This document shows positions 1 through 41,554 of a DNA stretch of 64,000 bases, one piece after another. A program made the translations under genes and the position numbers. Source of the stretch: an uncultured virus (IMG/VR IMGVR_UViG_3300047564_005685) (taxonomy: Duplodnaviria; Heunggongvirae; Uroviricota; Caudoviricetes); the IMG/VR virus record IMGVR_UViG_3300047564_005685; one strand, written 5' to 3'. The first letter of the stretch is position 1; each line of letters starts with the position of its first letter. The notes under the pieces are model-generated. The model searched no databases and was not told the origin of the DNA. It worked only from the letters and a program-made list of their open reading frames with translations.

Positions 1-1422
1 CGAGAAAATTTCGCGTACTTCTGCGAGCTGATGGGCAAGCCTCCAGCTCGTCACATGAAGGAATGGCACAAGCAATTGATTACGGGGCAGAGCAATAATT
101 ACTTGATGGATATTGCGGGGCCCAATACCTGCCTGCTCAGTCCGCGCGGCTCAGCGAAGTCGACGGTCTTGGGATTGCTGATTGCATGGCTTATCGGGAG
201 GCACGCGATAGCGCAGCGACTGCTGCGGATTATGTACGTTTCGTATAACGTCGACGTCGCCAGAAACAAGAGCGCAGCAATTAAGAATACAATTATGTCC
301 AAGGAATATCAAGAGATATTCCCAATGGTCCGACTTTCCAAGGCGAAAACATCGGACGAACTCTGGAGTATCGACTGGGAGCACGCCGGTATCGATGTTC
401 GGGGTGAGGATGCCTTCACGCTTGCCTGCGCCGGCCTAAAGGGTACGATCACATCCAAGCGAAGTAATCTGATCGTCGTTGATGACGCCATTAAGTCAGC
501 CACTGCCATTGCTAACCCGGACATCCGGAGGGAGATGGAAGCGAACTGGACGAACGTCATCGTGCCGACGATGTTCCAGGGTGCGCGTGCTATTGCGCTG
601 GGAACGCGCTTCCATTTCGACGACCTGTTTGCAACCACGTTCGTGGAGCGCAAGGGCTGGAAGGTCATTGTCCAGGCCGCGCTGCAGTACAACGAGGACG
701 GGAAGCCGCGCTCGTATTGGCAGGAGCAATGGTCGCTGAAGTATCTGTTAAAACTCCAGTCCGAAGATCGAGTCGCTTTCTCCTACCAGTACCTCAACCA
801 ACCGATCCGATCGACGGAGCTTGGGATCAGCCCTGAGCTGTTCGTCCGGGGCGAAGTGCCTGATGTCTATGACATGATGGGCGTCGGGATTGACCTCTCG
901 GCTGGAATCGGCGAGCGGAATGACTGGACCGTCTTCACGCTGGGCGGTCGCGTTGATGACAGGTGCTACATCATCGACTACCGGCGCATGAAGTCGATGG
1001 GCAACATCGAGAAGGTGGAAGCTCTCTGCGAGCTGCTGATGGAATGGAATCTGCTCGGCGTCAACGATGACGGCCAGTATTTCCCCACCAGCTCCCCAGT
1101 GACGATCTGGCCAGAAATCGTCGCTTACCAAAAGAGCTTCGAGGGCGACCTCAAGCGGATTCTCCTGCAGGAATGGGAGCTGTACAACCTGACAGTATCC
1201 CCCGTGAAGGGCTTCCGTGGCGATAAGCTGGCTCGATTGCGCGGGATGATGGGCCTGTTTCAGACAAAGCGGGTAATCTTCAACAAGTACCGCGACTTCG
1301 GGCAGATGATCGACGAGGTCGTCAATTTCGGTCATAGCCCACATGACGACTGCGCCGATAGCCTCAATTTGACCGTGCAGGGCCTGATGCGACGCGGATC
1401 CGCCCAAGTCGACTGGGATTAA
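1..1422 (+). CDS. terL: Terminase large subunit (5' end outside the window)
   Basis: Frame is open from base 1. Walker A-like SPRGSAKST, Walker B LIVVDD, coupling motif GTRFH, and RNase H-like nuclease motifs GIDLS..ND and HDDCAD. Confidence 0.92.
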   Translation, partial: RENFAYFCELMGKPPARHMKEWHKQLITGQSNNYLMDIAGPNTCLLSPRGSAKSTVLGLLIAWLIGRHAIAQRLLRIMYVSYNVDVARNKSAAIKNTIMSKEYQEIFPMVRLSKAKTSDELWSIDWEHAGIDVRGEDAFTLACAGLKGTITSKRSNLIVVDDAIKSATAIANPDIRREMEANWTNVIVPTMFQGARAIALGTRFHFDDLFATTFVERKGWKVIVQAALQYNEDGKPRSYWQEQWSLKYLLKLQSEDRVAFSYQYLNQPIRSTELGISPELFVRGEVPDVYDMMGVGIDLSAGIGERNDWTVFTLGGRVDDRCYIIDYRRMKSMGNIEKVEALCELLMEWNLLGVNDDGQYFPTSSPVTIWPEIVAYQKSFEGDLKRILLQEWELYNLTVSPVKGFRGDKLARLRGMMGLFQTKRVIFNKYRDFGQMIDEVVNFGHSPHDDCADSLNLTVQGLMRRGSAQVDWD

Positions 1423-1431
1423 CATAGAGCA

Positions 1432-3630
1432 ATGAGCCAGCCCAAGACCGAACGGTTTCGTCGCATCCTAGAGGCCGCCCGCAACCGGGACGGCAGCAGC
1501 GGGACCGACACGATGATCGTGAACTCGCATCTCGCGCAGATGCGGATGTTCATGATGCGGCAAGGCATCGAGTTCTACCCAGCGCAGGACACCTACGGAT
1601 TCCGCAAGATTTTTCTGAACTCGTTGATCCGCGACAACGAGATCGACGCTCGCCTCGAGGGAATCATTGATGACTTTCTGATCGACGGCAAGGGCCTCTG
1701 GTATTTCCGGCCGGTGGGCGAGACCTACCGGCTGATGTGGTTCAACAAGGATAACTACCGCGCGTACTACGACCCGGCAGGGCAGCTGGAAGAGGTTGAG
1801 CTGATTTACAGCTTCTCGGTGCGGGACAGCTTCGGACTCGGCGCCATGATGCCGGGCGAGGGCGGCTCATTGCGGTACGTGAAGCTCAAGGTCCGCCGCG
1901 ACACGATCCTTGAGTCGATCACCAGTGAAAAGCCTTCGTTTGAGGTGAACGCCGCAACGCTGACCTACGCGCCGCAGAGCACACGGACACTGGCAAACAG
2001 TCTGGGGTTCATTCCAGCGGTCGAAGCCTTCAACATGATGCGCTCGACCGGAATGGATGCCACGGGCGAGTTCGACTGGTTGAGCGATCACATCATTGTT
2101 CATGACGACCTCGTCAAGACAATCCGCTCAAACATTACGTTTTTCGGCAACCCGACGTTCTACTCGAGTCGTCCCAAGAGCGACATTATTGAAAGCGGCG
2201 ATGCCGATGAGTTCCGGCCGACAATCAGCTCGCAGGCTGGCTTCTATGCCGCGAATCGCCCGTCCACGCGCGTCAGTGCACCGATGGGCGGCGGTGGTGG
2301 TGCAGCCGGACGCGTGCCCCGGGTGATTGCCAACCTGGAGCCGACGGACCGGTTGGGATACGTCACTCCCGATGCGGTTTCCGGAGACCAGAATCTTTAC
2401 GCGCGTCAATACCGCGAAGAGCTGCGCAATGCCCTGGGCGGGGTGGACGAGCTGGGCATCAGCACCGGCGCCACAGCGTACGAGATCAAGTCACTCTATG
2501 GGCGTGCAGCGACGACCGCAGCGCGCAAGTGCCGTGGCCTGCTGACCTATGGGCTCTGCAAACTGCTGGGGCTGATCATCTTTCACGAAGAGCGCATCTT
2601 CCGCGACTCGTTTGCTGCTGCCGTTGGACTACAGCCGCCGCCGATTCCCATCAGGGAGCAACTGGATCCCGCGCAGTTCGAGGATGCCATCCGCAAGTAC
2701 CAAGATGACCGCGCCAAGTATGACAGCGAGGTCGAGGCCCGCATCGGCGAAGCGGTGCAGAACCGTCAGATGCCCCCGGGTGTCGTTGGCCTCATCCCCG
2801 ATGGCGACCGCAAAGTCGAGTGGCGCTGGATGGGACCGGTCTTTGAGGAGTCCACGGACGATATACTGAACTCAAGCATTGTCGTACGGAACCTGCAGGA
2901 GCTCGGTGTCAATAGCATCGAAGCACTGCGGTACCTCTTCCCGGATAAAACCGACGAAGAACGCAGCGGAATGCTTAATGGCTATCCATTCCGAATGGCG
3001 CAGGCCACCCAGCAAAGCATTGGGACGTTCCTGTCGCTCATTTCCAATCTGCAGCAGATCCCGCATCCACAGGCGCCGGATCTGCCGATGTTGGCAGACC
3101 CCAGGCTTGATCTGACGCCATACATCTATCGAGCCCTTGATTTCCTTAAGCGAGAACTGACCTATGCAGGACAGTACAACGATGACAGCGGTACCGACGA
3201 TCCCGGCATCCTCGGTCCCATCGAACGCGGTCGCGCCGAATATGGCTTCCCCGCAGGTCCAGCCGGTCCAACCTTCGTACCCGACGGCGGCACCGGCGTA
3301 TTCTCCGGAAGCGCCGGTTTCGGCCCCGCAGGCCAACCCATGGCAGGCGGCGTACCAGGGGCTCCTCGCCAGTTTGAACGCGACGCAGCCCTCCCCGGCC
3401 CCGGCGTACTCCTCGCCGATGATCCAACAGGTGGCCCCTTCCCCGGTGGCTTACCAGTCGGCGCCGGCCAGCTACCAGGCGGCTCCGTCCGTTTCGGCGC
3501 CGCTGATCTCAGCATTCCCACAAACGCCGGCTTACTCCCCGGTCTCAGCACCGGCGTACAGCCAGCCGCAAACCCAGAGCCAGAGCGTCGCCGACGAGTA
3601 TCTGGCAAGCGTCAGCAACGAAAGTCTTGA
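1432..3630 (+). CDS. Putative portal protein
   Basis: 732-aa ORF directly after terL. Called from synteny and size; the low-complexity C-terminal tail overlaps the next ORF. Confidence 0.65.
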   Translation: MSQPKTERFRRILEAARNRDGSSGTDTMIVNSHLAQMRMFMMRQGIEFYPAQDTYGFRKIFLNSLIRDNEIDARLEGIIDDFLIDGKGLWYFRPVGETYRLMWFNKDNYRAYYDPAGQLEEVELIYSFSVRDSFGLGAMMPGEGGSLRYVKLKVRRDTILESITSEKPSFEVNAATLTYAPQSTRTLANSLGFIPAVEAFNMMRSTGMDATGEFDWLSDHIIVHDDLVKTIRSNITFFGNPTFYSSRPKSDIIESGDADEFRPTISSQAGFYAANRPSTRVSAPMGGGGGAAGRVPRVIANLEPTDRLGYVTPDAVSGDQNLYARQYREELRNALGGVDELGISTGATAYEIKSLYGRAATTAARKCRGLLTYGLCKLLGLIIFHEERIFRDSFAAAVGLQPPPIPIREQLDPAQFEDAIRKYQDDRAKYDSEVEARIGEAVQNRQMPPGVVGLIPDGDRKVEWRWMGPVFEESTDDILNSSIVVRNLQELGVNSIEALRYLFPDKTDEERSGMLNGYPFRMAQATQQSIGTFLSLISNLQQIPHPQAPDLPMLADPRLDLTPYIYRALDFLKRELTYAGQYNDDSGTDDPGILGPIERGRAEYGFPAGPAGPTFVPDGGTGVFSGSAGFGPAGQPMAGGVPGAPRQFERDAALPGPGVLLADDPTGGPFPGGLPVGAGQLPGGSVRFGAADLSIPTNAGLLPGLSTGVQPAANPEPERRRRVSGKRQQRKS

Positions 3631-4144
3631 GGTCCTGCAGCACTTCGGCGCCGAGGCCCCTGCACTGCTGAACCGCTATGCCTGTGTGGTTGAGGATGCC
3701 CTGCTGACCCAGGCGCAGAACACCGCTCAGGCCCTGCAGGAACTGCAGGGTGTTCAGCAGCAACTGGTCAATGCCCATGACGTCATCCGCGCCGCTGCGG
3801 AAGACAACTCGGCCTACAACCTGCTGCTGACCGACCCCGACCTGCTGGCCAACTACGTTACCGACTTCTACGGTCCCCAGGGGCCGTATCCGGTCGAGAC
3901 CCCGCAGGATCGGCTGGCTGCTGAGGTGACCGCCAGCGAGCAGTTCTATGCCCCACAGGCGCCGAGCTACCAGCGACCTCAGCTCGAGATGCCCGACCCG
4001 AATGTCCAGGCCGGCGCCCCCGGTTCGGATTTCTGGTCGGTGTTCTCGCAGGTGAGCGAGCGCAATCCCGCCATGGCCTGGCAGATCCTGTCGCAGGCCA
4101 CCCCGGACGCCCTGCGCAGCAAGGTGCTGGTTTCCGAGGTCTGA
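3164..4144 (+). CDS. Putative scaffolding/head assembly protein
   Basis: P/A/S/Q-rich N-terminus, coiled-coil-like middle, located after the portal and followed by a terminator. Confidence 0.5.
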   Translation: MQDSTTMTAVPTIPASSVPSNAVAPNMASPQVQPVQPSYPTAAPAYSPEAPVSAPQANPWQAAYQGLLASLNATQPSPAPAYSSPMIQQVAPSPVAYQSAPASYQAAPSVSAPLISAFPQTPAYSPVSAPAYSQPQTQSQSVADEYLASVSNESLEVLQHFGAEAPALLNRYACVVEDALLTQAQNTAQALQELQGVQQQLVNAHDVIRAAAEDNSAYNLLLTDPDLLANYVTDFYGPQGPYPVETPQDRLAAEVTASEQFYAPQAPSYQRPQLEMPDPNVQAGAPGSDFWSVFSQVSERNPAMAWQILSQATPDALRSKVLVSEV

Positions 4145-8891: not shown

Positions 8892-9647
8892 ATGACTGTC
8901 ATTGACAGGGTCAATCGCTGGGGCGCCTCGGGGAAAAGAGTGCTAGTTGGCCCCGGAGAGCTCTCGGGCCCCGCTAGTGACGCGATCAAGGGACGCTTTG
9001 CAAGTATTACGCGGATTACCGGTGCTGTCGACTTTTACGAGATCACCGATGGATCTGGCGCCAATGAAGGCACGTACACGATTTCGGTAAAGCCATACAC
9101 AAAAGACGGCTTCCGCGCCAGTCTTGGAGGTGTGGGCCGAGTAGCGCTCGTTCGTCAAGCGGATGGCGTCAATACCCCTACCGCGACCGCGACGCTGTTG
9201 AGCCTAAAGCGTCCACGCGACAAGCAGACCGCTGTTACCTTGGGGCCGGCATCCATCGCGACCACCGACCGGCTGTTTCTGATTATCGAGAGACAGGACG
9301 TATCAACCATCAAGTATCAGGTTGAACTCACTCGAGTTCTGGATGCAATCACAATCAGCACGCAGCCATCCGCTAGCAGCGTGACTGCGCCAGCCTCGGC
9401 GAGTTTCACCGTAGGTGCAACGACAAATGACGGCGGCACTCTGTCGTATCAGTGGCAGCTCAGCACCAACGGTGGCACGAGCTACTCCAACATCACCAAT
9501 GGTGGTGTCTATAGCGGGGCGACAACCACGACGCTATCGATTTCCGATTCGACCGGACTCAATGGAAATCTTTATCGCGCCCGCGTGACCAGCACCGGCG
9601 GTTCTGTTGCCGTCAATTCCGATGGAGCGCTGCTGACCGTCGGCTGA
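8892..9647 (+). CDS. Virion protein with C-terminal Ig-like domain
   Basis: ITISTQP...ASFTV...LSYQWQ...TLSI...YRARV Ig-like pattern; N-terminus paralogous to ORF 6030. Confidence 0.75.
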   Translation: MTVIDRVNRWGASGKRVLVGPGELSGPASDAIKGRFASITRITGAVDFYEITDGSGANEGTYTISVKPYTKDGFRASLGGVGRVALVRQADGVNTPTATATLLSLKRPRDKQTAVTLGPASIATTDRLFLIIERQDVSTIKYQVELTRVLDAITISTQPSASSVTAPASASFTVGATTNDGGTLSYQWQLSTNGGTSYSNITNGGVYSGATTTTLSISDSTGLNGNLYRARVTSTGGSVAVNSDGALLTVG

Positions 9648-9714
9648 TCGGCAAGTATTGCGCGTCAGGCGGAATCAGCCAATACCTGTGTTGTATTGGC
9701 TGATGTCCCAATAC

Positions 9715-9846
9715 TTAGCGGCCCTGTCCGCGTGATGGCTTGCGACCGTGATTAGGCTTGGAGCCGCGCCCCTGTCCCTGCCTGGTCTTCTTGCAGATAG
9801 GATCCCGGTGGACGCATCTGGTCGAATTAGTCTTCGGCTTGGCCAT
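9715..9846 (-). CDS. Small basic protein, 43 aa (not in the ORF track)
   Basis: MAKPKTNSTRCVHRDPICKKTRQGQGRGSKPNHGRKPSRGQGR. The KKTRQG..RGQGR pattern resembles small cyanophage proteins; coupled to the upstream stop. Confidence 0.55.
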   Translation of the reverse strand: MAKPKTNSTRCVHRDPICKKTRQGQGRGSKPNHGRKPSRGQGR

Positions 9847-10268
9847 CAGATGACCCTGATCGCCATAGCGCCGACATTGAACTGAACAGTGTCGCCCTGC
9901 TGGACACTGACAGGCGTTGTCAGTTCACCGCTAGCCAGGAAGTTACCTCCAGTGACGGCATCCCAGACGCCAAAATGCGTCAACGTCACCGTCGAGCCAT
10001 TGGCTGCGTTCGTCGTGATCTGAACCACGTATGAATTCGTGATTTCACGGCCGCCGCCGGATGCGTTACCAACGGCGCTGAACGCGCTTGACGCCACCGT
10101 GGTGCGATTGGCCGTACCGGTCACGGAAGTCGTGGCATCGTCTACCGTGCCATTCACGCCTGGGTTGCCAGAGTGAATCGAGATGTGGACATTGCTGAGG
10201 GCCGCCGGGAAGGACACGCCCTTCACCCAAGTCAGGATCCTATCCGCCAGGTATTGAGAAAATGCCAT
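9846..10268 (-). CDS. Putative virion structural protein
   Basis: TLTHFGVWDAVTGGNFL..G.L...V..GD motif common in small tail-associated proteins. Confidence 0.65.
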   Translation of the reverse strand: MAFSQYLADRILTWVKGVSFPAALSNVHISIHSGNPGVNGTVDDATTSVTGTANRTTVASSAFSAVGNASGGGREITNSYVVQITTNAANGSTVTLTHFGVWDAVTGGNFLASGELTTPVSVQQGDTVQFNVGAMAIRVI

Positions 10269-10274
10269 TGCTGT

Positions 10275-11075
10275 TTAGTAGCCGTAGCCGTACGGCTTCC
10301 TAGCTGTCATCGTAGCGATATTCACGTTGCGCCCCGTCGCTGTACCGCTGATTCGATAGTTTTGCTGGAGCCTGCCGTACGGTTCCATGCGACCAATGGC
10401 CGCGCCTCTCATGATCGAAAGCGTCAAGGAAATAGGCATGGACCCTCCTGATTTCCCGCTTAGGTTCTTCACCTTGGCGGGCGCAAGGGGTGTCCCAATC
10501 GCGATGCAGGTCCCGGATGCGCTACCAGCGAGCTTGACCAATGCAACACGCGCTATGGGTTCGCCACGGAGCCGAACGACGCCCTGGCATTCCAAGTAAC
10601 GTTGCACCAGGGCATCCACGGAAAAAGGGGTTTCGCGCCACTGGTTCGTGCTGACCGTGAAATAGTAGGTACCCGGTGGCATTCGATCCAGAACCCCACT
10701 GTTGGCGCTGTTATGAATGGGCGCCATGTACGCAAAACCGTTTTCACCGAGCGGCAACGGATTGTGATCTGCGTCCAAAACGCCGACGCTGATGGTGCGG
10801 TCCGTGATTGGACGATCCATGCGCTTGACGATGCCGATCTTGGCGATAGCACTCGTCTCAATGCGAAAGAACAGGGTGGAGCGCCCTGTATGCCCACCCA
10901 CGATCCCGGTTAGACGCGCACCGAAGTTATCAACGCGACCGAGCTCTCGGGATTTGCTGAGTGAGTTGTACTGCAGATAGGCTGGTCGGACAAAAGAAGG
11001 CGCCGTGTTATCGCTGCCTCCATATGTCCGCCGATACGCTTCCTGCTGGGAGGACTGATCCAGTAAAGACGCCAC
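10275..11075 (-). CDS. Hypothetical protein (beta-rich, probably structural)
   Basis: 266-aa ORF ending 6 nt before the next minus-strand gene. Confidence 0.55.
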   Translation of the reverse strand: MASLLDQSSQQEAYRRTYGGSDNTAPSFVRPAYLQYNSLSKSRELGRVDNFGARLTGIVGGHTGRSTLFFRIETSAIAKIGIVKRMDRPITDRTISVGVLDADHNPLPLGENGFAYMAPIHNSANSGVLDRMPPGTYYFTVSTNQWRETPFSVDALVQRYLECQGVVRLRGEPIARVALVKLAGSASGTCIAIGTPLAPAKVKNLSGKSGGSMPISLTLSIMRGAAIGRMEPYGRLQQNYRISGTATGRNVNIATMTARKPYGYGY

Positions 11076-11242
11076 CTACTTTTAGCCAGTAGGCACCATG
11101 CTAGTTCGCTCTGCTAAACTCCCAGGCGCCGCCGCACGGGGATCAATCGCACGGCGGTCACTCACCAGCCAAGGGAAACGGCAAAAACCCAGGCTCCTGG
11201 AAAAAAGCCCCTGACGCCGTTCTTCTTCGGGGCTGATTAAAT

Positions 11243-11824
11243 CTAGCGAACTCCACTGCGCAGGCCTCGACGCATCGAGACATGAACGTGGGGGTAGACG
11301 CGCTTGGCAAAACGTTCGGACTCCTCGGGGCTCAGCTCGATAGCGAAGCCGCCCTTCGTGGTGATCTCTTCCGTAGCCCCAAAGCCATGACTGTCCAGGA
11401 GCAATGCGGCAGACGTGGTCAGCGGCTTTGAGCGGAAATTAGCAAAGGAGATCCGCGTCCCATCCGAACGCCCCCGATCGCACCAGAGAGTGCGGAGCCC
11501 GTGCTCGCCTGCAATGTCCATGGCGATACGGGTGACCTGTTTTTCATCGCGGGGATAAAGCAAGTCGTAAATATGCTGCATCTCAGGACAATGCACCAAC
11601 AAGCGGTGGTCGTCATAAAAGCCGCGTGTGGGGATCGTCAGGATTTCGCTCTCCAGCTGACCCGGGTATGACGCACGCAGTTGCCGCTGGATATGGCGCA
11701 AGTAGGTTAACTCGAGCTCAGAGCGCTGCAGCATCATCCAGGGGCGTCGCTTCCTGCCCAGGTGCTGAATCCTGCCGCTCCACATACAGTAGCTGAGTGC
11801 GGTGGCCACGAATTGAACTGACAT
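11243..11824 (-). CDS. Degenerate LAGLIDADG-like protein
   Basis: IYDLLYPRDEKQVT...GLRTLWCDRG resembles the LAGLIDADG_2 linker and second helix; the first helix lacks the acidic DG (ALSYCMWSG). Confidence 0.5.
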   Translation of the reverse strand: MSVQFVATALSYCMWSGRIQHLGRKRRPWMMLQRSELELTYLRHIQRQLRASYPGQLESEILTIPTRGFYDDHRLLVHCPEMQHIYDLLYPRDEKQVTRIAMDIAGEHGLRTLWCDRGRSDGTRISFANFRSKPLTTSAALLLDSHGFGATEEITTKGGFAIELSPEESERFAKRVYPHVHVSMRRGLRSGVR

Positions 11825-12425
11825 CCCACTGGTTGCTGTTGAACAGGTGTTGGCGACTTCTCGGTGCGTAAGAGCTCAGGGCATCCTTGAGCTTGCGAGA
11901 TTGCTCGGCGTCAAACCACAGCCGGGGCCTGACGCGCTCAAGATCGACCTGGGAAACGGCCCCCGTGAGCATCTCCAGCCACTGCTGCACCAGGAGCGCT
12001 TCCTGCGTGCTGAGCCCAACGCGCGCCAGTTCGGTCGTGCCGCCGGCTTGCGGCCGAGCGCCTTCTGCCCAGAGCCACGCGGCTGCTTGCGCCCCGAGCA
12101 TGTCGATCACCGTGCTGGTGATCCGGCGCTCGCCGCGAGGGTACAGCAAGTTGTAGATCGGGAACAGCTTGCTGGTGGAGACGCGAAATCGCAGGACGGG
12201 AGTGGTCTTGCCATTCGAGCGCGGCGTCGTGTTGTAGGGAACAATCTGGGCCTTGGTGGGCAGAAAATGGCGGAAGTCGGCGACCTTATCCTCCAGGAAT
12301 GCGGACTCCGACGGACCAGCGGTCAGGGTCAACTGCACATAACCCCCGCCAGGAGCGCGATATGGGGCAAGGCTGCCGTCCGCCAGCAGCAAACCCAGCA
12401 GGCCCCGGACGTCAGCAGCGTCCAA
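11718..12425 (-). CDS. Free-standing LAGLIDADG-family protein
   Basis: LLGLLLADGSL first helix, IYNLLYPRGERRIT linker, AAAWLWAEG second helix; AGGGAG RBS before the TTG start. Confidence 0.75.
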   Translation of the reverse strand: MDAADVRGLLGLLLADGSLAPYRAPGGGYVQLTLTAGPSESAFLEDKVADFRHFLPTKAQIVPYNTTPRSNGKTTPVLRFRVSTSKLFPIYNLLYPRGERRITSTVIDMLGAQAAAWLWAEGARPQAGGTTELARVGLSTQEALLVQQWLEMLTGAVSQVDLERVRPRLWFDAEQSRKLKDALSSYAPRSRQHLFNSNQWDVSSIRGHRTQLLYVERQDSAPGQEATPLDDAAAL

Positions 12426-12515
12426 AGTTTCTCCCTATAAAACACTACTATAGTAAGAGACAGGAGGCGCTTAGCGCGCTTTCTCGTACCTTGACAATTT
12501 GGAGCGTTTCATCCC

Positions 12516-13142
12516 ATGTGGATTGATAACGATTTTCCGAAGCTGCTTGGTGCTGAGCTTTATCGGCCACATCCTTCTTACATCGTTGAGATGGCTGTGG
12601 AGCCGGTTGTTGTGCATGATTTTGCTAAGCAACCGGGACAGACTGTGCAACTTGATCGATACCGCTTCTGGGGTGCTCCTGGCACCAAAGATAGCCGTGA
12701 ACGCACAGCTGATCAAACGCTCGGTACCGCATCTTCGCGTAGCATCGTGAAGGATAAGGTTCTGGTTTCTCTCAAAGAATATACCGGACCCGCAGATCCT
12801 ACCGATGTTTCTGCACCTTCTACGTTCAAGATCGCAAGGGAGACCTTGCTTACCGCCCAGCGCATGTTGCTGGATACTGGTAATCTGAATGTCTTCCATC
12901 AATCGATCGGAAGCCTTACGCTTTTGGACGATTATCGCCGCTGGCGCGATCGCGTCTTCTGCGATGAATTGTTCAAAGCTGAAGGCAATGGAGCTGCAGA
13001 TAGCACCAAAGGTGGCTACTACTATCCGCTGAAGAAAGCAAAGGCGTCTTCTGCGCCTTTCCTGACCTACGCGGCTGGTGAGTCGGCCAAATTCGATGTC
13101 AAGACCGACCTCCTCGAGGTGGTCAAAGACATGCGCAAGCGT
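12516..13142 (+). CDS. Major capsid protein, exon 1 (N4-gp56-like by recall)
   Basis: 209 codons ending ...KDMRKR at the U of a group I 5' splice site; HDFAKQPGQTVQLDRYRF capsid-like motif. Confidence 0.75.
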
Positions 13143-13494
13143 AAAGTAGTTGCGCTCGCCTAGGGCAATCTAGGCGCAAACATCCGGTGAATTGCTGGAA
13201 CCCCTTCTTCGCGTTCATCTCCCTACAACGTGGCCGGCGACGGCGAGCGTGAATGGTTGAAAAGAGGTGAATAGGGCGATCAGCAGCCAAGCTGGTCAGG
13301 AATGACTAGAAGGTTCAACGACTAGGCCGTACCCTCCAGGCCGGAGGATGAGGGCCAATAGCGCCGGAGAGCTAACACCAATGCTCTACGAAGATGGATT
13401 GGGTCAATAGAGGCCGCGGGACGCCCCATGCATTGGTGCTCTAGCTCAAGATATAGTCTACGCCCTGGGGATGAGAAACCCAGGGAGCTACGTG
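13143..13494 (+). mobile_element. Group I intron 1 (352 nt, no ORF)
   Basis: P GAATTGCTGGAA 13189, Q GATCAGCAGCC 13278, R GTTCAACGACTAG 13313, S AAGATATAGTCT 13448. P1 AGCGU/GCGCU with U.G wobble; terminal G at 13494; removal restores the frame. Confidence 0.9.
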
Positions 13495-13716
13495 AACGTC
13501 CCCACCTTCGCTGATGGGTACTACCGCTGCATTGCGGATCCCACCGCAATGATGCACCTGCGTCAGAACGACTCCTTCCGGGAGATCGCTCGTTACGCAG
13601 GTAATGGGATGGTCAACCCCATGCAACCGGAACTGGCCCCCAATGCCAGCTTCTTCCGTGGCATGGGCCCTGCTTACGGTCAGGCCGGCTTTGTTGCTGG
13701 TCAGCCCGTGATGCCT
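13495..13716 (+). CDS. Major capsid protein, exon 2
   Basis: 74 codons NVPTFADGYYRC...GQPVMP, phase 0 at both ends. Confidence 0.8.
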
Positions 13717-14822
13717 GAAACCATCGGGCCTGCATGATGCGAGTCATGCAGCAAACGGGGTGAATTGCGGGAATGCCTCCCTACTACGGCAAATCCGCAG
13801 CCAAGCCAGGCCACAACCTGGAAGGTTCAACGACTAGGTCCCGAGAGGAAACTCGGTAATGGACCCACGAGTGCCCCGCTACTTAACCATTTCAATCCAA
13901 GTATCTGCTTCCAGCTTCTTCCGCGTGATGCATGGGGCCCCAGCTCCGTAGGTCCACTGCAGGATCTTGCGAGGCTTGCCGCCAAAGGTCATCGTGAAGA
14001 AGGTTTTGCCAGACGGCAAAACGCGACTGTGTATAACTGGCTCGACGGAAAAGCCTTCCGCCACCCAGCTCGACACAGTAAAGATAATCGCTTGAGAACA
14101 ACTGCAGAGGTATAAAGACTTCTTTTTGGCGCTAATATGGCCATCGCCGTCAAGAAGACCTCTTAAGCAATGCCCCCGCAGTTCACGAGGAATCGTCGAC
14201 GGCAGAAAATGCTGTTCAGTGTTCAAGGTGATCCCTTGGGACACGAGTGACTCAGTTAGCAAGCGACTATGAATCAGGAGGCGCCCCGATGGGCGTTTAC
14301 CTTTTCTCGTCACCCTCTCGCAGGATCCCCTGTAATTAAGCAGTTTTGCCAATCCATTCAGGACATCGGCATCGGGAAACTGCAGCTCAATTGAAGTAAA
14401 CTTCGCATTGGGCTTCAAGGATGTGTGACCATCGGCAGCAAGCAGGCCCAGGTAATAGGCCTTGTCCGGGCTGTCGATGTTCTGGAAGCAGTCAACCCTT
14501 AGATCTCTGTGCCAGGGATGAGCTGTGCCCTGTCCTGGGTGGAGCAACTGGCCGCCCTGCAACGAGCGCCTACAACCGGTGCTCTTCGTGAATGACTGGA
14601 TTCCGTGGCGTTTACGAAGCACAAAGAAACTAGACGTGGCAATACCAAGCAGCTTGGCTGCCTGGGTATCCGACCATTCGGATGCCAGTTTTCTGACGGT
14701 TTCTTCTGAGATCTCGAGTTTAACTCCCTGCATAGCAACGGTTAAGTAGATGAGATAGTCTGACCTCACGGGATGGCAAACCGCGAGAACTGGGGGATAA
14801 ACAACCCCAGGATAACATAGTG
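13717..14822 (+). mobile_element. Group I intron 2 (1106 nt) with antisense homing endonuclease
   Basis: P GAATTGCGGGAA 13762, Q AATCCGCAGCC 13792, R GTTCAACGACTAG 13825, S ATGAGATAGTCT 14750. P1 GCCU/GGGC; P8 CTACTTAACC/GGTTAAGTAG; terminal G at 14822. Confidence 0.9.
13879..14733 (-). CDS. Intron-encoded double-motif LAGLIDADG homing endonuclease
   Basis: KAYYLGLLAADG and CLRGLLDGDG motifs, N-terminal HTH-like segment. ATG 14733 chosen as start; the frame extends to 14769. Confidence 0.88.
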   Translation of the reverse strand: MQGVKLEISEETVRKLASEWSDTQAAKLLGIATSSFFVLRKRHGIQSFTKSTGCRRSLQGGQLLHPGQGTAHPWHRDLRVDCFQNIDSPDKAYYLGLLAADGHTSLKPNAKFTSIELQFPDADVLNGLAKLLNYRGSCERVTRKGKRPSGRLLIHSRLLTESLVSQGITLNTEQHFLPSTIPRELRGHCLRGLLDGDGHISAKKKSLYLCSCSQAIIFTVSSWVAEGFSVEPVIHSRVLPSGKTFFTMTFGGKPRKILQWTYGAGAPCITRKKLEADTWIEMVK

Positions 14823-15116
14823 AGCGGCTTTCTCTTCGAAGGCGTGCGCTGGTTCGAAAGCACCAACATGCCCGAGAAGAGCCTGCAGGTGACCATCACC
14901 GATGCGTCGATCACCAGTGCGGTGACGGTTGCATCCCCGATGCTGTTCTTCGGCCCTCAGGCCGTGGGCGTGGGCATCGGCGGCAACAATGCGCAGATCC
15001 TGCTGAACAATAACGACGATTTCAGTCGTTTCATCATCATGATCTGGTCGCTCTTCGCAGGTTTCGAAATCCTGAACAAGGACTTCGTCACCGTGGCTTA
15101 CTCCTTCGTCTACTGA
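14823..15116 (+). CDS. Major capsid protein, exon 3
   Basis: SGFLFEGVRWFES...FFGPQAVG...DDFSRF...W, typical capsid C-terminal pattern; spliced product about 380 aa. Confidence 0.8.
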   Translation, partial: SGFLFEGVRWFESTNMPEKSLQVTITDASITSAVTVASPMLFFGPQAVGVGIGGNNAQILLNNNDDFSRFIIMIWSLFAGFEILNKDFVTVAYSFVY

Positions 15117-15131
15117 TAGGAGGTAAAACCC

Positions 15132-31228: not shown

Positions 31229-31816
31229 ATGACGCCAGAACACTGGAATGATTATGTGTTCAGCCTCATCGATTTATCCCCTCGAGCCGCTCGAAGGAGG
31301 TTTCAGCAGTCCATCAAAAGCGCTTGGGGCTCATGCGCGTATTGCGGTCGTTCGCGCGATCAGAGGGGAGAACTCATTCCCCTGACGCTCGATCACGTCA
31401 AACCGCGCCACTATGGCGGCAGTTCTTTGCGCTCGAATCTTGTGCCGGCGTGCCGAGAGTGCAACGAGAACAAAGGCAGCGCCAGGGATTGGAGAACTTG
31501 GTACTCTCAGCAGCAGTTCTACTGCGCCCTTCGCGCAGCCAGAATCGAAGCCTGGCTGCAGCCCGCTTGGGGCCGGTGGGGTGCTCATGAATCAGACTGC
31601 TGCGAATCCCATGGACAACGAGCTCTCGGAGGAGCAACAGTACATGTTGCGGAAAGTCCGCCTAGAGGCGGAATCTATGACTCGGAAAGAATTGATCGAG
31701 GCGTTGTGCGATTCCTGGGAGGCGCGGTATCAGCAGCGGCAGATCTTTGCGTCCATGGGGCGCCAATTCGGGCTGACCTTCACGGTGAGGGAGGAATATC
31801 CATGGCAGCGGCCTGA
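31229..31816 (+). CDS. HNH endonuclease
   Basis: CAYCG...TLDHVKP...GG....NLVPACRECNENK; the C-terminal ~75 aa overlaps the next gene. Confidence 0.85.
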   Translation: MTPEHWNDYVFSLIDLSPRAARRRFQQSIKSAWGSCAYCGRSRDQRGELIPLTLDHVKPRHYGGSSLRSNLVPACRECNENKGSARDWRTWYSQQQFYCALRAARIEAWLQPAWGRWGAHESDCCESHGQRALGGATVHVAESPPRGGIYDSERIDRGVVRFLGGAVSAAADLCVHGAPIRADLHGEGGISMAAA

Positions 31817-40879: not shown

Positions 40880-41554
40880 TCACTCCGCAGTAAATGTGAC
40901 CTTCATGTCAGGAGCGGCATCTAGTGTCGGGGCGACAAAGTGCATGACGACCAATCGCAGGAAATCACGCTCCATGCGCAGCTCCGCGACCTGCTCACGC
41001 AACTGGACGACATCAGCGGCAACTCCATTGGTCAAGCGATCATCGAAGGGAAGCTCCGTAAAGAGTTGATCGCTGGAGGATTGAGGCTGGGCGGGCTCGA
41101 CCGGCTGGTTTTCCGGAACTGGCGCCTCCATGGCCATGTCTTCAGATCGTGAAGACCCCTGGCTGTTATGACGCATCTCCCGCAGCCAGCGGCTGATCGT
41201 GCTGTACGCGATACCGGTACGTGCCCCTGCCGCGAAGGCGGACAGCCCTTCATCCAGTACCAGCCGCAGGGCCTCTGCTTTCTGCTCATCCGAAATGAAG
41301 CGATACCCCCCAACGGGACCCAGAAGCGCACTTGTAATCAGGGTCCCGGCGGGTGTCTGGGATTGGGACTCGAGGGCCTGGGCCCTGTTGACCCAGTTCT
41401 TGACAGTGGACCAGCAAGTGCCGAACTCCCGGGCAACGGAGTTAATCGGCCGCCCCTCTTCGAGGACAAGGCGGACCATTTCGCGGCGCTCGGCGGGCTT
41501 GAAGCGAAGACGGTTGCGATGGCGAGTACGCGTGCGATGTGGAGTGTTAGGCAT
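40880..41554 (-). CDS. Tandem-HTH protein resembling IS3-family OrfA
   Basis: Two ..VL.EG....A...G....T...W HTH units and LREQVAELRMERDFLR leucine zipper. Confidence 0.65.
   Translation of the reverse strand: MPNTPHRTRTRHRNRLRFKPAERREMVRLVLEEGRPINSVAREFGTCWSTVKNWVNRAQALESQSQTPAGTLITSALLGPVGGYRFISDEQKAEALRLVLDEGLSAFAAGARTGIAYSTISRWLREMRHNSQGSSRSEDMAMEAPVPENQPVEPAQPQSSSDQLFTELPFDDRLTNGVAADVVQLREQVAELRMERDFLRLVVMHFVAPTLDAAPDMKVTFTAE

Follow-up and report, generated by a model that had tools for sequence, protein, structure and literature searches.

A vertically inherited tandem pair of LAGLIDADG-fold genes beside the major capsid gene of a branch of S-EIV1-like cyanophages is independent of the capsid introns

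Why do two overlapping genes for LAGLIDADG-fold proteins stand head-to-head with a major capsid gene that is itself split by group I introns? The question is raised by a 64,000-nucleotide (nt) stretch of DNA from an uncultured virus (Caudoviricetes; IMG/VR record IMGVR_UViG_3300047564_005685), hereafter the window, in which two minus-strand open reading frames (ORFs), ORF1 and ORF2, follow one another away from the capsid gene. An initial annotation of the window had described both as degenerate LAGLIDADG genes, and had proposed that they are trans-acting maturases or homing partners of the ORF-less first capsid intron, or else domesticated regulators of the capsid gene. We conclude with high confidence that the two genes form an ancient tandem LAGLIDADG pair that is kept by vertical descent independently of the introns. 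The best explanation for its retention, which we advance tentatively as coming close to an even chance, is a vertically kept, free-standing nuclease pair that acts at the DNA level, probably when co-infecting phages compete. The features on which the argument turns are listed below in window coordinates.

11718-12425, minus strand: ORF1, 235 amino acids (aa), TTG start, two-domain LAGLIDADG_2 protein
11243-11824, minus strand: ORF2, 193 aa, ATG start, paralogue of ORF1 with a complete LAGLIDADG fold
11718-11824, minus strand: overlap of the ORF1 3' end with the ORF2 5' end, 107 nt, ORF2 in frame +1
12426-12515, no strand: divergent spacer of 90 nt, from the ORF1 start to the capsid ATG (12516)
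12516-13142, plus strand: major capsid gene exon 1, from alignment to an uninterrupted orthologue
13143-13494, plus strand: group I intron 1, 352 nt, no ORF (Rfam RF00028, 70 bits)
13495-13716, plus strand: capsid exon 2, from alignment to an uninterrupted orthologue
13717-14822, plus strand: group I intron 2, 1106 nt (Rfam, 50.7 bits)
13879-14769, minus strand: LAGLIDADG_3 ORF within intron 2, 296 aa (PF14528, E 1.1e-7)
14823-15119, plus strand: capsid exon 3, stop codon included

The nature of the two proteins was examined by profile and structure searches. ORF1 matches the Pfam family PF03161 at 30.6 bits (gathering cut-off 25), and its AlphaFold2 model, with a predicted local distance difference test score (pLDDT) of 77 overall and below 50 for residues 200-235, has I-SceI as its top solved match in Foldseek (E 3.8e-9; template-modelling (TM) scores 0.65/0.68), followed by I-WcaI and further by the bI3 maturase (sixth-best), I-DmoI and WhiA, the last of these (E 2.9e-5) being weaker than the match to I-SceI. 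The window's own ORF2 has no Pfam match; of 23 aligned members of its family, eight match PF03161 at E<=0.01 (best 8e-7), and the AlphaFold2 model of the 193-aa protein (pLDDT 95, predicted TM score 0.89) matches I-DmoI, I-WcaI and I-SceI in Foldseek at TM 0.61-0.72 and WhiA at TM 0.66-0.67. Its ESM Atlas model, at TM 0.77-0.84 to LAGLIDADG_2 models, agrees with that from AlphaFold2, and the best Foldseek matches of the two AlphaFold2 models (I-SceI, I-WcaI and I-DmoI) lie between E 4e-9 and 4e-7. Across the linker common to both ORFs, 16 of 46 residues are identical by BLASTP (E 4e-8), and hhalign aligns the two family profiles over 159 columns with a probability of 98.65% (E 4.6e-16). Searches of PHROGs, NCBIfam and PADLOC returned no match for either ORF; the ORF1 profile found nothing among PDB sequences at E<=1, the ORF2 profile found there only two chance-level matches (E 0.55 and 1.1), and Pfam detected no helix-turn-helix (HTH) or other added domain in either protein. 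ORF1 and ORF2 are paralogous LAGLIDADG-fold proteins with two LAGLIDADG helices each, which bears out the initial annotation as to fold, shared linker and overlap on the minus strand.

The active-site residues set the two paralogues apart. ORF1 had been called degenerate, with WAEG in its second helix; in 63 of 63 distinct ORF1 sequences, D16, G17 and E121 are invariant (G122 in 61), and in the model D16 and E121 lie at the ends of the LAGLIDADG helices formed by residues 3-16 and 112-122. A Glu in the second LAGLIDADG motif is a normal catalytic residue in this family, with which PDB titles such as 'I-DmoI E117A' are consistent. Judged by these residues ORF1 is not degenerate, because each of its LAGLIDADG helices ends in an invariant acid; with both metal-binding acids kept, it is probably active as an endonuclease that recognizes a specific DNA sequence. 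The description of ORF2 as lacking the first acidic motif was correct in that position 16 is acidic in none of 61 distinct relatives (K in 41, R in 11, other residues in nine; S16 in the window), and incorrect in that the motif-1 helix itself is retained in the model (residues 3-15); D116 of motif 2 is present in 59 of the 61. An acid at the end of both helices, taken as the sign of catalytic competence, is found in ORF1 and not in ORF2. The latter probably serves as a partner that binds DNA and either nicks it or leaves it uncut, and its translation would begin at an ATG within the 3' end of ORF1.

That ATG occurs without exception in all 64 distinct sequences of the ORF2 frame, and the N-terminal stretch that follows it (MS.QFVA.ALSY.LGKG) is conserved. 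Based on entropy by codon position, variability 5' of the ATG peaks at the third position of ORF1 codons; for about 36 nt past it (11789-11824) constraint extends to all three positions, in both frames (mean entropy 0.48), and further on the peak lies at the third position of ORF2 codons. By these signs, the true start of ORF2 is 11824, giving the 193-aa form, and the overlap is real. Because codon-position variability switches frame past the ORF2 ATG, the functional part of ORF1 ends at about residue 212, the tail that runs over ORF2 being unselected read-on with a variable stop. The overlap measures 65-161 nt among relatives, and in distant clades ORF1 is about 200 aa long and does not overlap ORF2.

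How widely, and how regularly, is the pair found? A word-index search returned at least 259 relatives of ORF1 at E<=1e-3, the 120 matches listed being 225-279 aa long and 58-100% identical, and the ORF1 profile found just 103 clusters at E<=1e-3 in a library of 1.84 billion representatives. We compared 80 viral-contig loci selected by ORF1, one of which, L001, matches the window at 100% identity and could come from the same phage. Gene order in this set is constant, with the capsid gene on one side of the spacer and, divergently on the other, ORF1, ORF2, the virion gene g266 and a gp80-like gene; where the contig leaves room, ORF2 is present in 75/75 loci and g266 together with gp80 in 58/58. 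Among loci selected instead by the capsid gene and having at least 800 nt upstream of it, 33/69 carry ORF1 and 36/69 carry none, and the two groups separate by identity in capsid exon 1 (about 83% or more with ORF1, about 83% or less without); ORF2 follows in 30/30 of the ORF1 loci with at least 1400 nt upstream. The only cultured relative among GenBank phages is Synechococcus phage S-EIV1 (capsid identity 68%): the pair is present in 0/80 loci near it, and its complete genome has neither PF03161 nor HNH_3, so the pair is not essential to the lineage. Also, 14 of 24 loci returned from distant phages were examined, the other ten belonging to clades already sampled, and pair and synteny were found in 13/13 with room, at 63-80% identity in capsid exon 1 and 36-54% in ORF1; the motif Asp and Glu are both present in the ten distant ORF1 orthologues read, and the spacer is held at 85-95 nt even in these clades. 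No truncated or decayed copy of ORF1 or ORF2 was seen among the loci compared, nor an empty site within the pair-bearing clade.

The pattern of inheritance was assessed on a capsid tree, for which we took the 284 loci with all three exon segments, dropped 21 of unknown state, and thinned the remaining 165 distinct capsids to 101 by removing same-state rows at least 97.5% identical. The three states (pair, the HNH gene described below, or none) need two changes on this tree, the minimum possible, against a shuffled mean of 47.8; pair-bearing lineages are basal on the midpoint root, which is unreliable, with L339 on a long branch. Pairwise distances in ORF1 correlate with those in the capsid gene at rho 0.65, compared with 0.68 between the capsid gene and g216 and 0.67 between the capsid gene and gp80. 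Median NG86 ratios of nonsynonymous to synonymous substitution (dN/dS), a check suggested by the initial annotation and here computed from pairs with dS of 0.1-1.5 that differ by gene, are 0.205 for ORF1 and 0.457 for ORF2, alongside 0.223 for g216, 0.182 for g266, 0.101 for gp80 and 0.070 for the capsid gene. These ratios indicate that both genes are under purifying selection and that ORF1 evolves like its structural neighbours. The sporadic presence and decayed copies that characterize a mobile homing-endonuclease gene (HEG) are not seen for the pair; the free-standing position of such genes next to a conserved gene is, the pair being intergenic and 90 nt from the capsid gene.

We next consider the introns. 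The uninterrupted capsid orthologue in locus L009, 96% identical across the exons, matches the PHROG 1357 major head protein (E 2.8e-20), and the intron boundaries were set by aligning the window with the uninterrupted gene and applying the U(-1)/terminal-G rule; the head-to-head arrangement with an intron-split capsid gene across a 90-nt spacer was correctly described from the outset. The ORF1-selected set is unbiased as to introns, whereas the capsid-selected sets favour uninterrupted capsid genes, and the intron counts of the latter (0/80) were left unused as evidence. In the 69 ORF1-selected loci with fully covered capsid genes, 48 genes are uninterrupted and 21 contain insertions, which occupy at least eight sites; in 16 of those loci Rfam identified a total of 27 group I introns, with a maximum of four in one gene (L021). 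The intron-1 site of the window is common only to L060, and the intron-2 site to about eight loci. In the pair-less clade, sampled via the gene downstream of the capsid gene, capsid genes are uninterrupted in 68/70 loci, and the remaining two, L304 and L306, carry two and three group I introns. Introns are commoner beside the pair (21/69 vs 2/70; Fisher p 7e-6), in loci that are phylogenetically non-independent. Because introns occur without the pair and the pair occurs without introns, the pair is independent of the capsid introns. By the criterion that the initial annotation had set, its conservation in intron-less relatives rules against a maturase role; it is compatible with domestication, which it leaves open.

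The introns also vary over short evolutionary distances. In pair-bearing genomes that have no capsid intron, the insertion site of intron 1 is intact, and in one of them it differs by 1 mismatch in 48 nt; one changed base could be enough for protection. DNA contigs from three runs of other studies include alleles from which intron 1 is precisely absent and alleles without intron 2; each of the three runs also covers ORF1 and ORF2. Inside intron 2, the third LAGLIDADG ORF noted initially was confirmed; it is antisense to both ribozyme and capsid gene, as is its 73% identical counterpart in L017. Near-identical strains have intron 2 without this ORF (joint 13883>14745, runs X7 and X9), among them one represented by a contig 99.5% identical to the window, so the intron-2 ORF is a recent gain or loss. 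The proposal of a fixed module of three LAGLIDADG genes and two introns is not supported by these observations, as intron 1, intron 2 and its ORF vary while ORF1 and ORF2 stay. A contig of RNA run X20 that skips both introns was considered as proof of splicing and rejected, being about 8% diverged in a setting where intron-less DNA alleles exist. More generally, the capsid gene of the clade comprising L005-L072 and the window is an intron hot-spot in which most introns are ORF-less; some capsid introns contain LAGLIDADG_2 ORFs, 24-26% identical to ORF1.

What occupies the position of the pair in the relatives that lack it? In a pair-less sister clade (L195-L320), a 122-aa gene with NUMOD4 and HNH_3 domains stands head-to-head with the capsid gene in 65/65 loci with room. 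We found 99 full-length copies of this gene, 53-100% identical and none broken. The arrangement is illustrated by locus L205 (coordinates of that contig).

2019-2387, minus strand: NUMOD4+HNH_3 gene in the sister-clade slot
1310-1990, minus strand: 226-aa ORF (g226) after the HNH gene, with a weak Endo VII-like C-terminus (PHROG 3281, E 1.9e-5)

No similarity was found between g226 of the HNH clade and g266. Two unrelated nuclease families are each fixed at the same position in sister clades, and a third clade is without either. A sigma-70-family gene was also observed just upstream in the sister-clade HNH locus. Furthermore, the pair-bearing locus L338 contains an HNH-like stretch (3367-3648), 31% identical to the sister-clade HNH gene, between the capsid 5' end and ORF1 and next to group I introns; because L338 has both, the two nuclease types can share one genome.

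The spacer was examined in an alignment of 40 distinct sequences, in which the ORF1 start codon is TTG in 39 and GTG in one. Common to the 40 are a TAGGG in the ribosome-site region of ORF1, a TATAGT core, a variable hairpin, and a GGAG followed by the capsid ATG. The -10-like TATAGT is the sole strongly conserved element, and sits within a perfect 10-bp palindrome, TACTATAGTA (12446-12455), whose 8-base core occurs once in the 64-kb window; the hairpin has a weak consensus structure (-1 kcal/mol, 4 pairs). The AT-rich string to which the initial annotation had drawn attention corresponds to 12436-12457. We rejected CTATAGTA as a recurrent promoter word, the spacer copy being the only one in the whole window. 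Spacer length is 89-95 nt in 64 ORF1-selected loci, and longer spacers reflect insertions at the capsid 5' end. The spacer reads as a putative capsid promoter and leader, and the TTG start suggests that ORF1 may be made at a low level. Within 9600-12700, a sigma-70 scan found no promoter-like site, and terminator-like sites were no more frequent than in shuffled sequence. A hairpin with a T run past ORF2 is present in 27/61 relatives, compared with 13/61 shuffled sequences, which weakly suggests that ORF1 and ORF2 form a two-gene unit. The features on this side of the pair are as follows.

11188-11235, minus strand: terminator-like hairpin and T run directly past ORF2 (weak evidence)
9846-11075, minus strand: downstream virion genes, comprising g266 (10275-11075) and a Gp80-like gene (9846-10268; PF23140, E 1.6e-23)

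Elsewhere, the window corresponds to a phage structural and replication region, with terminase, tail, endolysin, primase-helicase, ThyX and single-stranded DNA-binding protein genes. Public runs containing the stretch are freshwater or other aquatic metagenomes; among GenBank phages, no DNA near-identical to the window and no tblastn match to ORF1 or ORF2 was found. Also observed in the window were an HNH endonuclease gene (31229-31816, plus strand; PF01844, E 6e-11) and a gene for a transposase-type HTH protein (40880-41554, minus strand).

How, then, might the retention of the pair be explained? In our preferred reading, ORF1 and ORF2 derive from the ancient duplication, in tandem, of a free-standing LAGLIDADG gene of the two-domain, I-SceI-like type. 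The pair is fixed in one large branch of S-EIV1-like cyanophages, in which it is inherited vertically, with ORF1 as the probably active member and ORF2 as a presumably half-dead one. The pair would be kept for its action at the DNA level in mixed infections, where cutting of pair-less relatives would either bias inheritance towards the linked capsid and virion genes or cripple the rival, and the resulting traffic of breaks and repair would open the capsid gene to the arrival of mobile introns. Such a weapon or drive is proposed because the acids of ORF1 are intact, the pair is dispensable in S-EIV1, and a second nuclease family occupies the slot. As background, HEGs cluster beside essential phage genes, and an intron-borne HNH endonuclease of PhiPA3 confers a competitive edge over PhiKZ, according to the accessible portions of the respective reports (PMC10448857; PMC11620839). 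A number of points weigh against this reading. The loci are metagenomic contigs, many of them close kin; the capsid tree is rooted at the midpoint only; dS is near saturation, which makes the dN/dS values rough; S-EIV1-type relatives manage without any such nuclease; and in P0133, P0136 and P0148, distant ORF1-family members of about 200 aa, the motif-1 Asp is replaced by T, C or S. Standard homing theory predicts that an element decays once it is fixed without empty sites. With no empty site seen in the pair-bearing clade, the pair may instead have been retained over the long term for an internal function acquired by domestication, and fixation without any decay fits such a role equally well. 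A broader version of our preferred reading, which we consider doubtful, treats the capsid-upstream site as a selected 'nuclease slot' in which the LAGLIDADG pair and the NUMOD4-HNH gene would be phage-owned interference weapons and not parasites, with ORF2 as a nicking or target-masking partner and the ORF-less capsid introns as the footprint of this warfare or as armour against it.

A domesticated pair, which is possible although somewhat unlikely in our estimation, would serve the phage internally, either by WhiA-like binding at the capsid or late promoter or by cutting or nicking at a specific site as part of the phage's own DNA metabolism. The deep vertical conservation with no decayed copy, the spacer length kept into distant clades, the fixation of a different nuclease family in the sister-clade slot, and the presence of WhiA among the fold matches of both proteins are all in its favour; moreover, Barth et al. 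state, citing the HK97 HNH protein, that bioinformatics alone cannot separate homing from domesticated nucleases (accessible portion of PMC10448857). The viability of S-EIV1 without such a gene argues the other way, as do a location at the start of an operon that looks late and adjoins the capsid gene, which is a poor position from which to turn on late genes, and a spacer whose one strongly conserved element is -10-like. WhiA, furthermore, has lost its catalytic acids and gained an HTH DNA-binding domain, whereas ORF1 has both acids and no added domain. If the pair were instead an ordinary selfish homing-endonuclease pair, still cycling and of no benefit to the phage, its free-standing location between conserved genes, adjoining the most conserved gene of the module, its replacement by other nuclease families in relatives, and the low expression suggested by the TTG start would all be natural; this is improbable in view of only two state changes on 101 capsid lineages, a presence that splits cleanly with capsid identity and leaves no empty site in the clade, the absence of decayed copies among the loci compared, and a divergence in step with neighbouring genes. 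Service to the capsid introns, whether as trans-acting maturases or as a collaborative-homing nuclease for intron 1, can appeal to an ORF-less intron 717 nt from the pair, to the enrichment of capsid introns in pair-bearing phages, to the bI3 maturase among the fold matches of ORF1, and to precedents in trans, namely T4 mobE, which makes the nrdB intron mobile, and F-CphI, which acts together with the psbA intron, as given in the accessible portions of PMC2790892 and PMC6083498. We nevertheless regard it as very improbable, given that most pair-bearing relatives (48/69) have no capsid intron, that the introns are scattered over at least eight sites of which that of intron 1 recurs in one other locus only, that L304 and L306 have introns and no pair, and that near-identical strains differ in their introns yet all keep the pair. 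Moreover, with the intron-1 site intact and near-identical, pair-bearing intron-less genomes would carry their own target.

The pair was also compared with known systems. With the monomeric enzymes I-SceI and I-WcaI it shares the two-domain fold (TM 0.65-0.72) and, in ORF1, a PF03161 match and an acid ending each helix; in contrast, ORF1 and ORF2 are just 10-14% identical to these enzymes and have no sequence-level PDB match, and they are free-standing, not intron-encoded, arranged in tandem with one acid-lacking copy, and fixed and vertical where the enzymes are sporadic. The T4 seg/mob genes and the 'HEG islands' of ICP1-like phages (PMC10448857, accessible portion) likewise involve an intergenic nuclease by a conserved essential gene, a shared slot and introns nearby. 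Unlike these, the pair is of the LAGLIDADG type, far more deeply conserved, strictly vertical, and made up of a predicted active and a degenerate member; in the data of that report as available, at least 8 of 20 LAGLIDADG genes are intein-encoded. Collaborative homing, as for F-CphI with S-PM2 psbA and for T4 mobE with nrdB, resembles our locus in that a free-standing nuclease lies near an ORF-less group I intron in the adjoining gene, and differs in that the pair persists intron-less in most relatives, with the intron site intact in pair-bearing genomes. WhiA and the bI3 maturase, both domesticated LAGLIDADG proteins, share the fold, the long retention and, with ORF2, the loss of an active-site acid; ORF1 differs in keeping both acids, and the pair in having no C-terminal HTH and no dependence on an intron. 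PhiPA3 gp210 (PMC11620839, accessible portion) is alike in the action proposed here, a homing-type nuclease damaging a co-infecting relative, and unlike in being an HNH protein that is intron-encoded and experimentally tested. A literature search returned no prior description of the ORF1-ORF2 pair, and a preprint on the marine branch of the lineage (10.1101/325100) mentions neither LAGLIDADG proteins nor introns in the available part of its text, supplements aside.

These results correct a tempting but wrong link between the LAGLIDADG pair and the capsid introns beside it. Free-standing homing-type nucleases are usually viewed as short-lived parasites; here, a pair of them has come down by vertical descent in a widespread lineage of aquatic cyanophages, remaining intact and subject to purifying selection. 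The pair represents an unexplored family of probable sequence-specific nucleases, accompanied by a natural paralogue that retains a single acid. With the sister clade having a different nuclease family fixed in this slot, the locus provides a good natural case for asking whether phages keep such nucleases to beat co-infecting relatives.

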